In this document: piece by piece, positions 2,109 to 6,035 of the stretch | Position numbering within the stretch: position 1 is the stretch's first letter | Layout of the letters: every line of letters begins with the position of its first letter | Assembly: GCF_054482595.1 (NCBI RefSeq) | Contig: NZ_CM137008.1 | Length of the DNA: 64,000 nt | Strand: one strand, 5' to 3' | Position numbers and translations under genes: made by a program | The notes under the pieces: generated by a model | What the model was told of the DNA's origin: nothing | The model's input: the letters and a program-made list of their open reading frames with translations, nothing else | Databases searched by the model: none

Positions 2109-3284
2109 ATGCGTCTGTTTTCTATTCCTCCACCCACGCTACTGGCGGGGTTTCTGGCGGTATTAATTGGCTACGCCAGTTCAGCGGCAATAATCTGGCA
2201 AGCAGCGATTGTCGCCGGAGCCACCACTGCACAAATCTCTGGCTGGATGACGGCGCTGGGGCTGGCAATGGGCGTCAGTACGCTGACTCTGACATTATGG
2301 TATCGCGTACCTGTTCTCACCGCATGGTCAACGCCTGGCGCGGCTTTGTTGGTCACCGGATTGCAGGGACTAACACTTAACGAAGCCATCGGCGTTTTTA
2401 TTGTCACCAACGCGTTAATAGTCCTCTGCGGCATAACGGGACTCTTTGCTCGTCTGATGCGCATTATTCCGCACTCGCTTGCGGCGGCAATGCTTGCCGG
2501 GATTTTATTACGCTTTGGTTTACAGGCGTTTGCCAGTCTGGACGGTCAATTTACGTTGTGTGGAAGTATGTTGCTGGTATGGCTGGCAACCAAGGCCGTT
2601 GCGCCGCGCTATGCGGTAATTGCCGCGATGATTATTGGGATCGTGATCGTCATCGCGCAAGGTGACGTTGTCACAACTGATGTTGTCTTTAAACCCGTTC
2701 TCCCCACTTATATTACCCCTGATTTTTCGTTTGCTCACAGCCTGAGCGTTGCACTCCCCCTTTTTCTGGTGACGATGGCATCGCAAAACGCACCGGGTAT
2801 CGCAGCAATGAAAGCAGCTGGATATTCGGCTCCTGTTTCGCCATTAATTGTATTTACTGGATTGCTGGCACTGGTTTTTTCCCCTTTCGGCGTTTATTCC
2901 GTCGGTATTGCGGCAATCACCGCGGCTATTTGCCAAAGCCCGGAAGCGCATCCGGATAAAGATCAACGTTGGCTGGCAGCTGCCGTTGCAGGCATTTTCT
3001 ATTTGCTCGCAGGTCTGTTTGGTAGTGCCATTACCGGGATGATGGCTGCCCTGCCCGTAAGTTGGATCCAGATGCTGGCAGGTCTGGCGCTGTTGAGTAC
3101 CATTGGCGGCAGTTTGTATCAGGCGCTGCATAATGAGCGTGAGCGCGACGCGGCGGTGGTGGCATTTCTGGTAACGGCAAGTGGATTGACGCTGGTCGGG
3201 ATTGGTTCTGCGTTCTGGGGATTAATTGCCGGAGGCGTTTGTTACGTGGTGTTGAATTTAATCGCTGACAGAAACCGATATTGA
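2109..3284 (+). CDS. ydcO: BenE-family membrane transporter
   Basis: Track ORF 1848..3284; start moved to internal ATG (MRLFSIPPPTLLAGFLAV...) giving 391 aa; polytopic hydrophobic protein. Confidence 0.8.
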   Translation: MRLFSIPPPTLLAGFLAVLIGYASSAAIIWQAAIVAGATTAQISGWMTALGLAMGVSTLTLTLWYRVPVLTAWSTPGAALLVTGLQGLTLNEAIGVFIVTNALIVLCGITGLFARLMRIIPHSLAAAMLAGILLRFGLQAFASLDGQFTLCGSMLLVWLATKAVAPRYAVIAAMIIGIVIVIAQGDVVTTDVVFKPVLPTYITPDFSFAHSLSVALPLFLVTMASQNAPGIAAMKAAGYSAPVSPLIVFTGLLALVFSPFGVYSVGIAAITAAICQSPEAHPDKDQRWLAAAVAGIFYLLAGLFGSAITGMMAALPVSWIQMLAGLALLSTIGGSLYQALHNERERDAAVVAFLVTASGLTLVGIGSAFWGLIAGGVCYVVLNLIADRNRY

Positions 3285-3323
3285 CATCCTCCACGCCCTG
3301 AAGGACGTGGATCCCTGCTACGT

Positions 3324-4532
3324 TCAGGCTGTCGCCTGAATCATTTCGGTGGGTTCCTGCTTCAACGGGCGGCCTGACTGCACCATCTCTCCACAGGCAA
3401 GAACGGCGTGCCCCGCCGCTAAAATGTTACGAGCGCCATTTACATCGGCGTTCGCTGTATATCCACATACCTGGCATCTGAATTTACTTTGTGACAGGCG
3501 GTTCTCTTTCGCTGTATGACCACAGTACGCGCAACGCTGGCTTGTATACGCTGGCGGAACAGCAAGCACCTGACCGCCACGCCAGAGCTGCTTGTACTCA
3601 AGCTGGCGGTGCATTTCATACCAGCCCTGATCCAGTATCGAACGGTTTAAACCTGATTTTGCCCGGACATTGCGCCCCGGCTGGCTGACCGTACCCGCTG
3701 CTGACTTTGACATGTTGCTGACCTTCAAATCCTCAATGACTATCATTGCGTGGTTTTTGCTGACGGCCGTTGTGACTTTGTGAAGGTAGTCCCTGCGGAT
3801 ATTTGCGATACAGGAATGCAGTCGCTGTATTTTGCGTTTCTGCTTCTGCCAGTTGTTGCTGAATTTGACCTTGCGGCTTAACTGTCGCTGAAGTCTCGCC
3901 AGCGTCTTCTGGTTTTTCTGAAAACTGTTTACAGGCTCAAAGACTGTGCCATCTGACAGCGTGGCGAGTTTAGCCACGCCAGCATCCAGCCCGACCATTG
4001 ATGCTGAAGGGTGAGCCGGAGTGGATACTTCACTTTCTGTCTGAATACTGATGTACCACTTACCGCAGGACTGGCTGACAGTGACATTTTTCACAACACC
4101 CGTGACCTGACGGCTGTTCCGGTAGCGCATCCAGCCCAGTTTCGGCAGAAAAATACGGCTGTTTTCCTGATCGAGCTTAACGCCCTGCGGGTAGCGGAAT
4201 GCATCATTCTGTCCCCGCTTTTTGAATCGGGGAAAAGCAGCCCGCTTCCGGAAGAAGTTTTTGTAAGCCCGCTCAAGGTCTTTCAGTGACTGTTGCAATG
4301 GCTGTGAGGGAGAATCTTTAAGCCATTGCGTTTCAGTGGCATTTTTCCACTCAACCAGCCAGGAAGCCATTTTCCCGTAAGGGATGTATTTATTACCGGC
4401 CTCATGATTCTCATTCTGACGTGCCAGAGCACGATTGAAAACGAAACGACATGCGCCTGCGAAGCGCCTCATTTCACACTCCTGTTGACCACCTGGTCTT
4501 AACTGGAATTTAAATGCCTGTAATCGTTTCAC
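3324..4532 (-). CDS. insQ: TnpB (OrfB) RNA-guided endonuclease of IS200/IS605 family
   Basis: 402-aa ORF with RuvC-like motifs [22 protein letters not shown] and zinc finger CAYCG...CQVCG. Confidence 0.9.
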
Positions 4533-4539
4533 AGGTCAA

Positions 4540-5046
4540 ATGATACTTTGGTCTGTGAAAAAAGAAACCGATATCCGGCGTGGAAGGCATTGTGTTTTCC
4601 TGATGCATGTTCACCTGGTCTTTGTCACCAGATACCGACGCCAGATTTTTGACCATGACGCGACAGAAAAACTACGCACTTACTTTTCAAATGTATGTGC
4701 TTATTTTGAAGCTGAACTGGTTGAAATGGATGGCGAACCAGATCACGTCCATTTGTTAATTAACTAACCTCCCAAACTGGCGATATCCAGTCTGGTAAAC
4801 AGCCTCAAAGGCGTATCGGGTAGGTTACTGCGACGAGATCGACCAGATATTGCAGTCAGGTATTACTACAAAGGCGTTTTGTGGAGTCCTGGCTATTTTG
4901 CCAGTAGCTGCGGAGGTGCGCCAATATCCGTCATCCGCCAATACATTGAACAACAGCAAACACCTGGTCAGGTGGAAAACCGCGCCTTATATCCCCGCCC
5001 TGAAGGATGGGGTTTTACGGCGCACCGGATAAAAAGCGCCATCTAA
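4540..5046 (+). pseudogene. IS200-type HuH/Y1 transposase TnpA interrupted by in-frame TAA at 4765-4767
   Basis: N-terminal part ...HVHLVFVTRYRRQIF...DGEPDHVHLLIN then TAA; same frame continues PPKLAISSLVNSLKGVSGRLL...YYKGVLWSPGYFASSCGGAPISVIRQYIEQQ to stop at 5044-5046. Confidence 0.7.
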
Positions 5047-5055
5047 CGATGGCGC
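5031..5055 (-). terminator. Intrinsic terminator downstream of ydcL
   Basis: Hairpin gcgccatc-taac-gatggcgc (5036-5055) followed on minus strand by U5 (5031-5035); 8 nt after ydcL stop. Confidence 0.5.
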
Positions 5056-5063
5056 GTCTGGAA

Positions 5064-5732
5064 CTACTTTTTGTTAACGTCAAACATGGTGGCATCGGTC
5101 GCCATGTCATCAATAACTTGTTTAATATTTTCGAAAGCCATTGGCGTACTTTCGTTATTCAGGTCTTTACCTTCGCCCTGACGAACGACTTTGATAACCG
5201 GTTTATTAGTCGCTGCATCAATCAGCTCACCTTCAAAATAGAGGCGAGTATCCATGGTACGGTGGCCTGTAGCCATTTGCGTCCCCGCAACCACTAATGC
5301 AACAGGAACCACTTCATAGAATTGCAGCCCTTCTTTGCTGGTATCTACACCGGTAATGGCCCCACGGAAAATCAGACTACGCGGCCCAGCGGTGGTAACC
5401 ACTGGTTTACGCTGCGCTATCGCTTCTTTCATTTCGGTGTTGGTATAGTTCAAAATTTTATCCAGAACTTTCTGCCCTACCTGGGTAGAAGGTTTTGGTA
5501 CCGGATAATAAGTGATTGGGTTCCAGACGATGCTGTCATATTTGCTTTGATCAAAACTCGGGTCTACCCAACGTAAAACAGGTTTACCTGTTGCTGAGGT
5601 TGTTTCTTTTAAATCAGAGTAATTGTTTAAAAAACCAGAATATTTATCTGGCTGGGTGATTTTAGAGGCACAACCAGACAGAGCCAACAAGCCGCATAAA
5701 GCTGCAACTTTCGCAAATGATGTGGTACGCAT
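5064..5732 (-). CDS. ydcL: Lipoprotein YdcL
   Basis: 222-aa ORF with lipobox LALSGCAS after signal peptide. Confidence 0.85.
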   Translation of the reverse strand: MRTTSFAKVAALCGLLALSGCASKITQPDKYSGFLNNYSDLKETTSATGKPVLRWVDPSFDQSKYDSIVWNPITYYPVPKPSTQVGQKVLDKILNYTNTEMKEAIAQRKPVVTTAGPRSLIFRGAITGVDTSKEGLQFYEVVPVALVVAGTQMATGHRTMDTRLYFEGELIDAATNKPVIKVVRQGEGKDLNNESTPMAFENIKQVIDDMATDATMFDVNKK

Positions 5733-6035
5733 GAATAGTTTCCTGAGATGATTATATTACTTTTTAAGTTATAGCAAAAAGCGCCGCTTCGTGTTGTGGC
5801 AAAAAAAGTGTTGGTGAAAATAAATTTTTTTAGCCCCTTTTCAGACGACATAGTCAATGCCGCAAAAGGGGCTAAGTCAATCATCAGTAGTTAAATTTCA
5901 GTAAGTTAAGCTGCTAAAAAACTTCGACTACTGTGATTAATTTCACATCCCTTCGATAAAAAATATGCTTACCGAAAAGAAGAACAGTAAATCATCTCAG
6001 CGTGGGGAATTTTCACGCGCCTTATTCTTAGCGGG

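Follow-up and report, generated by a model that had tools for sequence, protein, structure and literature searches.

The DNA analysed here is a 64,000-nucleotide stretch (the window) of contig NZ_CM137008.1 (NCBI RefSeq assembly GCF_054482595.1) from Escherichia coli, and it contains a copy of the insertion sequence (IS) IS609 between the genes ydcO and ydcL. Our work supports, with a probability of about 0.8, the idea that this copy goes back to a single old insertion in which the transposase gene tnpA has decayed, whereas tnpB (insQ) and the scaffold of its guide RNA have stayed intact; by analogy to related systems, TnpB would cleave the empty allele of the site in an RNA-guided manner. As judged from its sequence, the locus is the IS609/insQ/yncK locus of E. 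coli K-12 with a different nonsense allele of tnpA. It is already known, since the K-12 annotation lists IS609, the "putative RNA-guided DNA endonuclease InsQ" and the pseudogene yncK, since the annotation pipeline PGAP reports insQ and "tnpA, IS200/IS605 family transposase, internal stop" for the copy of strain XH990, and since TnpB-only elements are a documented pattern. The new detail added here concerns the population: About 60% of the complete E. coli genomes carry the insertion and about 37% have the empty site, and tnpB is intact in all 19 occupied loci studied as compared to at least five independent lesions in tnpA.

The identity of the element and its borders were established by comparison with other E. 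coli genomes. The segment from 3200 to 5100 matches strain XH990 with 100% identity and the same chromosomal site of K-12 MG1655 with 99.2%; for this site, the K-12 record annotates an IS609 of 1748 bp (insQ, b1432; yncK, b4578). This bears out the initial annotation, which had recognised IS609 but had assigned it to positions 3285-5050; comparison with an empty site and the K-12 IS609 feature place the element at 3281-5028. In strain ChlosBP-23-1, the ydcO-ydcL interval lacks IS609 and reads ...ACCGATA/ATAAAAAGC... or, in a longer form, ...GACAGAAACCGATA/ATAAAAAGCGCC..., with the slash marking the junction. Relative to this allele, the occupied site has the structure TTTAT/element/TATCGG... 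and thus no target duplication. On the top strand of the transposon, the layout from the left end (LE) to the right end (RE) is 5'-...GCGCTTTTTAT / CCGGTGCGCCGTAAAACCCC...(LE)...tnpA (reverse)...tnpB...GGAGGATGTCAA (RE) / TATCGGTTTCTGTCAGCG... The element has the features of the IS200/IS605 family: It encodes a Y1 HUH TnpA (as a pseudogene), carries sub-terminal hairpins on one strand instead of terminal inverted repeats, and is inserted 3' of a short specific sequence, with no duplication of the target.

The transposase gene is defective in the window. When its stop codon is repaired, the TnpA protein reaches 143.8 bits with the NCBIfam model transpos_IS200 (cutoff 55) and aligns with solved TnpA proteins of the IS200/IS605 family including those of IS608 (2a6m/2vhg) and ISDra2 (E values from 5e-20 to 1e-16). 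Codon 76 is a TAA, and this stop falls between the HUH motif with H69/H71 and the catalytic tyrosine Y135, just as the initial annotation had claimed. Read from the sequence, the gene is unable to give a protein that holds both the HUH motif and the tyrosine, and IS609 is likely to be immobile in this strain. A further lesion, absent from the earlier description, is the loss of the normal tnpA stop codon: The reading frame would pass LE and run for 18 nt into chromosomal DNA, up to position 5046. We also considered two explanations that would spare TnpA. A sequencing error can be ruled out: An exact 59-mer containing the TAA is present in 1017 complete-genome records, which makes it a real and common allele, and PGAP calls an internal stop as well. 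Recoding or read-through of the TAA was rejected in view of the frameshifts and other stop codons that the gene has in further lineages. The single IS609 of K-12 gave no transposition events (0) in mutation-accumulation lines (PMC5009759). As a side observation, the copy of a related Escherichia sp. (locus L017) has the same lost tnpA stop and, in addition, ATA in place of the ATG start codon.

In contrast to tnpA, the tnpB gene of the window is an uninterrupted open reading frame (ORF) for 402 amino acids. The protein matches ISDra2 TnpB of the PDB with E=2.6e-55 across residues 3-372 and scores 378.6 bits with the NCBIfam model NF040570 (guided_TnpB; cutoff 100); the narrower "exception" model IS200_TnpB was not reached (305.8 bits vs a cutoff of 425). 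That the RuvC-like motifs and the zinc finger are kept had already been proposed, and the alignment with ISDra2 TnpB agrees with this, as it places D183, E267 and D363 on D191, E278 and D361. The catalytic residues are also kept in the TnpB proteins of K-12 and of the IS609 copy of O157:H7 strain E32511, and none of the substitutions among 14 aligned copies from the ydcO site affects them. The start codons of tnpB (GTG, 4532) and tnpA (ATG, 4540) are 7 bp apart. An increased level of insQ mRNA in biofilms has been described in a microarray-type report (PMC5379667).

The RNA that would guide TnpB can be recognised by comparison with homologues. We collected 80 loci with TnpB relatives (57-94% protein identity) from species-representative genomes. 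Their 60 distinct right ends are conserved past the tnpB stop codon up to ...GGAGGA[T/A/C]GTCAA and, as in the window, invariably end with GGAGGATGTCAA, whereas the next 20 nt are unrelated between the loci. Such conservation up to GTCAA with unrelated DNA behind it is the pattern that marks a right end with a flank-derived guide after it. An alignment of 50 right ends of 180 nt, the window included, was analysed with RNAalifold and has covarying helices. For a structure of five helices and 28 pairs drawn on the sequence of the window, 93% of the cells are paired as compared to 46-52% after a shift of the partners by 1-3 columns, the covariation score reaches 0.419 vs 0.05-0.10 in the shifted versions, and 20 of the 28 pairs have compensatory changes on both sides. 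The sequence of the window forms all 28 covarying pairs, and the z-score of the minimum free energy is -3.3. The first helix falls within the coding part of tnpB, at some distance upstream of the RE hairpin, and this speaks for an RNA structure and not only a DNA hairpin recognised by TnpA. A search of Rfam with positions 2500-6000 gave nothing at the gathering score; sub-threshold matches of HgcC, sot0042 and RAGATH-18 on the scaffold may serve as a lead only. RAGATH-18 is the scaffold of the guide RNAs of IS607 TnpB proteins (PMC11061315). The layout suggested before, with a guide RNA made of the tnpB 3' end and the right end that reads into the 3' flank of ydcO, thus fits the family as judged from homologue covariation and the flank pattern. 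The predicted guide TATCGGTTTCTGTCAG matches the empty allele: There it stands exactly behind TTTAT, whereas it follows ...GTCAA in the occupied locus.

How the element has fared in the species was addressed with complete genomes. Of 5426 complete E. coli genomes, 3265 (~60%) have the ydcO/RE junction and 2018 (~37%) the empty junction with ydcO intact. The insertion is thus common but, contrary to the wording of the initial annotation, not fixed. For a closer look, 19 occupied loci were compared: the window, K-12, 12 genomes spaced evenly along the similarity ranking, and five arbitrary genomes. All of them have the full tnpB ORF of 402 codons, and tnpA is disrupted in 18 by at least five independent lesions across the lineages. 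The TAA of the window is only one of these lesions and occurs in eight copies; K-12 has a TGA at 4825-4827 instead. If disruption is assumed to be uniform per base, the chance that five of five lesions affect tnpA (432 nt) rather than tnpB (1209 nt) is about 0.0013. Exact queries retrieved 1017 records for the TAA allele and 2598 for the TGA allele of K-12; as the sum exceeds the 3265 occupied sites, part of these matches must come from IS609 copies located elsewhere, and no allele frequencies for the ydcO site can be derived from them. The 14 aligned copies from the ydcO site all have variants in common by which they differ from the O157 copy, including the change from TAG to CAG at 4969 and a mismatch at 5008 in the LE hairpin. 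These common variants indicate one ancestral insertion.

Based on these data, we suggest the following scenario. IS609 would have inserted once, long ago, at TTAT in the T-tract of the terminator that serves both ydcO and ydcL, which are convergent. Subsequently tnpA would have decayed, in this strain by the conversion of the Tyr76 codon to TAA and the loss of the normal stop, and without TnpA the element could neither excise nor transpose on its own. A transcript of tnpB would leave the element through RE and be trimmed to the scaffold with the guide TATCGGTTTCTGTCAG of about 16 nt; a transcript reading through from ydcL might have the same fate, since ydcL and tnpB have the same orientation and read-through could transcribe both tnpB and the guide RNA. 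The complex of TnpB and guide RNA would then cut DNA in which TATCGGTTTCTGTCAG follows TTTAT, i. e. the empty ydcO-ydcL allele. The occupied locus itself would be protected because the guide sequence there follows ...GTCAA rather than TTTAT. As no excision is expected without TnpA, the nuclease would normally be without a target in its own cell. The expression of the guide RNA, the activity of the nuclease and the cleavage of the empty site are assumed here by analogy to Geobacillus TnpB and to ISDra2 of Deinococcus radiodurans (PDB 8bf8, 8exa, 8h1j). The TnpB proteins of ISDra2 and IS609 are homologous over nearly the full length, with the D/E/D residues and the zinc finger at like positions, and in both cases the guide RNA is made of the tnpB 3' end together with RE and takes its guide from the flank, for IS609 as a prediction. 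The elements differ in that tnpA is divergent from tnpB here and in the target motif, which is TTGAT for ISDra2 and TTTAT for IS609. The analogy also draws on work by Karvelis and by Altae-Tran, both from 2021.

Other copies of IS609 help to judge this scenario. The K-12 copy resembles that of the window in its site, its length of 1748 bp, the insQ gene for 402 amino acids, the lost tnpA stop and the LE mismatch; it differs in tnpA, with a tyrosine at codon 76 and the TGA at codon 96 where the window has TAA and a leucine codon, respectively, and in four residues of TnpB. The copy of O157:H7 strain E32511 lies inside a TetR gene near ytfB. It shares the 1748 bp, the ends, TTAT on the target side and the TnpB length of 402 amino acids, whereas it encodes an intact TnpA of 143 amino acids with a normal TAG stop and has an LE hairpin without mismatches. 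The window and O157 copies differ by 38 nucleotides, and 12 of these differences change amino acids of TnpB. A second chromosomal IS609 derivative is present in strain Z22-2 between hslO and yhgE (L103, 1545-2958): It has a full tnpB gene for 402 amino acids, whereas tnpA has lost, by an internal deletion, everything between a point shortly ahead of the HUH motif and the LE hairpin. Strain MSB1_8B carries a remnant near yedF/ybcM (L102, 1995-2832) in which tnpB is shortened to its first ~97 codons; the "tnpA" gene for 174 amino acids is annotated as intact there, yet it enters unrelated sequence before the helix with the catalytic tyrosine. Finally, three loci (L013-L015) have several variants in the 5' part of tnpB (4308-4536) as in the O157 copy and the signature of the ydcO site elsewhere. 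Such a mosaic is suggestive of gene conversion or recombination among copies of IS609.

Several points weigh against the preferred scenario. The sample consists of 19 out of ~3265 occupied genomes. Among the first 14 copies from the ydcO site, 18 synonymous and 24 non-synonymous polymorphisms were counted in tnpB, and the resulting ratio of non-synonymous to synonymous polymorphism (pN/pS) of 0.38 indicates moderate constraint, with P=0.002 if the neutral synonymous fraction is 0.22 and P=0.05 if it is 0.30. Some lineages have broken scaffold pairs, at 3308 in three strains and at 3311 and 3356 in L013, so that the guide RNA may be decaying in some strains despite an intact tnpB ORF. The GTG start codon of tnpB has no obvious Shine-Dalgarno sequence, and an internal ATG (Met21, 4472-4470) has AGGAG upstream; the first 20 residues of TnpB are conserved across the homologues and align with ISDra2 TnpB. 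A simple scan gave no sigma-70-like promoter for tnpB or the guide RNA. In the available part of one paper (PMC12781874), purified IS609 TnpB is not singled out for strong trans-cleavage, and target cleavage is not described. Our search of the literature on IS609, InsQ and the neighbouring genes found no in vivo study of the TnpB protein of this locus.

A rival idea is that TnpB is a functionless relic, that both genes decay, that tnpB has just not been hit yet, and that no guide RNA-nuclease complex acts in the cell. We regard this as rather unlikely. In its favour, the pN/pS (0.38) is high by the standard of constrained bacterial genes, with many non-synonymous polymorphisms including L211P and C241R; the scan found no promoter-like site; the dead TnpA leaves TnpB without a target of its own in the occupied genome; and IS609 was inert in the mutation-accumulation lines of K-12 (PMC5009759). 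A mere relic is difficult to reconcile with the fact that tnpB is disrupted in none of the 19 loci as compared to at least five independent disruptions in the three-fold shorter tnpA gene, and with the derivative between hslO and yhgE, which again pairs a full tnpB with a deleted tnpA. Moreover, D183, E267 and D363 are intact in the window, K-12 and O157 and spared among the 14 aligned copies, and the window forms all the covarying scaffold pairs. It might also be that IS609 is still mobile here because a working TnpA from another locus of the same genome acts on it in trans and excises it, whereupon TnpB would cut the restored empty site and thereby regain the element. Both ends are indeed present, XH990 has two further places that match tnpA and LE, copies with intact tnpA occur in E. 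coli as in O157:H7, and the mosaic of variants between the ydcO-site and O157 copies suggests past exchange. Yet the two other chromosomal loci that were read, both in other strains, have dead tnpA genes, one without the tyrosine helix and one internally deleted, the LE hairpin is mismatched in all 14 aligned copies from the ydcO site and paired in the O157 copy, and K-12 had no IS609 events (PMC5009759). We thus consider mobility in trans improbable.

Given that the insertion has persisted for long at a single site and occurs in 60% of the genomes, and that the guide region is antisense to the 3' end of ydcO with tnpB directed into this gene, TnpB might have been adopted by the host as a nuclease-dead RNA-guided regulator, as in the case of TldR, or might exert an antisense effect on ydcO. 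The likeness to TldR is that a TnpB homologue persists at a chromosomal location where no transposase is functional. We rejected membership in this group because all three RuvC catalytic residues are present and the transposon ends as well as the flank-derived guide are retained. The zinc finger is intact along with D183, E267 and D363, unlike in TldR, the gene still lies between recognisable transposon ends, the guide is whatever flanks RE, as in every homologue, and 37% of the genomes lack the element and have an intact ydcO gene. A regulatory role is therefore highly improbable. Within the preferred explanation of a dead transposase next to a preserved TnpB, it is tempting to speculate that the IS609 of the ydcO site is a transposase-free homing element aimed at the empty allele of the ~37% of strains that lack it, an idea that we regard as doubtful at best. 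If it were true, encounters by conjugation or transduction would lead to the cleavage of the empty allele and its repair from the occupied copy, or to the destruction of incoming DNA with the empty allele, and this would explain why tnpB is intact alongside the repeated loss of tnpA.

The positions of the individual features are compiled in Table 1.

Table 1. Features of the IS609 locus and tnpA lesions. Positions are those of the window; copy numbers refer to the 19 occupied ydcO-site loci.
Feature	Position	Strand	Basis or remark
IS609, 1748 bp	3281..5028	-	empty-site comparison, K-12 mobile_genetic_element feature, copies elsewhere matching exactly 3281-5028
IS609 orientation	LE at 5028, RE at 3281		transposon top strand is window minus strand
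tnpB/insQ, intact 402-amino-acid ORF, GTG start	3324..4532	-	ORF list; RefSeq WP_000826403.1, no pseudogene flag
RuvC-I Asp183 codon, aligned to ISDra2 D191	3984..3986	-	alignment
RuvC-II Glu267 codon, aligned to ISDra2 E278	3732..3734	-	alignment
RuvC-III Asp363 codon, aligned to ISDra2 D361	3444..3446	-	alignment
Zinc-finger region C334-x2-C337...C353-x2-C356	3462..3533	-	aligned with ISDra2 CxxC...CxxC
tnpA pseudogene (yncK in K-12), Y1 HUH transposase, divergent from tnpB	4540..4971	+	profile and structure matches
HUH motif DHVHLL (H69/H71)	4744..4752	+	upstream of TAA
In-frame TAA, codon 76 (Tyr76 to stop; TAT in K-12 and intact O157 copy)	4765..4767 (lesion at 4767)	+	sequence, alignment; 8/19 copies, window included
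Catalytic tyrosine Y135 in IRQYIEQQ	4942..4944	+	downstream of TAA
Lost tnpA stop, TAG to CAG	4969..4971	+	common to 19/19 ydcO-site copies
tnpA 5-bp deletion	4651-4655		7/19 copies, subset of TAA carriers, window excluded
tnpA Leu96 to stop (TGA)	4826		6/19 copies, K-12 included
tnpA Glu62 to stop	4723		4/19 copies
tnpA 1-bp deletion	4581		3/19 copies, subset of Glu62-to-stop carriers
tnpA without lesion beyond lost stop			1/19 copies
Predicted guide-RNA scaffold (omega RNA/right-end element RNA, reRNA), last ~95 nt of tnpB plus 43-nt tail to RE	3281..3418	-	covariation
Scaffold helices	3418-3414/3408-3404, 3397-3393/3360-3356, 3340-3335/3328-3323, 3311-3303/3298-3290		a fifth helix (3 pairs) is nested inside the second
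Predicted 16-nt guide 5'-TATCGGTTTCTGTCAG-3', flanking DNA	3265..3280	-	RE boundary; antisense to ydcO codons ...DRNRY
RE sub-terminal hairpin, 9 bp, 3290-3298 paired with 3303-3311	3290..3311	-	sequence, helix 5 covariation
LE sub-terminal hairpin CCCCAUCC-UUCA-GGGCGGGG	4993..5012	-	sequence; A.C mismatch at 5008
Target or transposon-associated motif (TAM)-side flank 5'-TTTAT-3', directly 5' of LE on top strand	5029..5033	-	empty-site comparison
ydcL intrinsic-terminator-like hairpin	5036..5055	-	T-tract is the TTTAT target
ydcO stop TGA donated by IS right end	3282..3284	+	empty vs occupied allele (also L002, 1076-1084)

The two ends of IS609 carry hairpins on the same strand, the minus strand of the window, and with the same UUCA loop. 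The RE hairpin reads UCCACGUCC-UUCA-GGGCGUGGA. The initial annotation had reported a hairpin at 3291-3310; the hairpin does exist, and its stem extends by one nucleotide beyond either end of this span. It presumably serves both as the recognition hairpin of TnpA and as the last helix of the scaffold. In the LE hairpin, position 5008 forms the A.C mismatch in 14 of 14 aligned copies from the ydcO site and a G-C pair in the O157 copy with the intact tnpA gene. On the side of LE, the flanks of homologues from other species are TTTAT, TTTAC or TTGAT, and the independent insertion of IS609 in O157:H7 is located 3' of TTAT as well. At the right end, the element lies within the stop codon of ydcO, with which the TTTAT motif overlaps on the opposite strand: The empty allele ends with ...ADRNR-TAA and the occupied allele with ...ADRNRY-TGA, and YdcO is one residue longer when the site is occupied. 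The genes around the element are arranged in the order sutR, ydcO, IS609, ydcL, tehB. The terminator-like hairpin of ydcL is intact, and LE follows directly after TTTAT so that the tail of the terminator runs on into IS DNA. Two observations were made on the side in the set of homologues. In a metagenome-assembled genome of the Hahellaceae, the right end is followed after about 1.2 kb by a further right-end-like sequence ...GGAGGATGTCAA (L035, 4792-4971), which may be another element or a derivative without genes. A contig of 2057 bp labelled Streptomyces mutabilis (L026) encodes a TnpB that is 81% identical to the E. coli protein and has ends of the enterobacterial type; the contig appears to be a contaminant and not a genuine Streptomyces element.

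The loss of tnpA from elements that keep tnpB is not peculiar to IS609: TnpB-only elements and decaying tnpA genes are the norm in these families (bioRxiv 10.1101/2023.03.14.532601; PMC11061315). In Geobacillus stearothermophilus, an IS605-family TnpB acts as a homing nuclease that cuts the scarless donor joint, made of the target motif and the RE flank, and thereby restores the element, and most elements lack tnpA (Meers et al., bioRxiv 10.1101/2023.03.14.532601). In contrast to this case, the tnpA gene of IS609 is still present but broken by point lesions, and the element occupies one orthologous site that is polymorphic across the species. As a discovery, our finding carries little weight; it is real but ordinary. 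Nevertheless, most laboratory and natural E. coli strains carry an apparently intact endogenous TnpB with a predicted guide and the motif TTTAT, and this is worth knowing when E. coli is the host for interference assays with TnpB or Cas12. Moreover, the site offers a natural experiment: An orthologous insertion is present in about 60% and absent from about 37% of the genomes, and in our sample the loss of tnpA was repeated, whereas no loss of tnpB occurred. A full population analysis could thus test for selection on TnpB after the death of the transposase.

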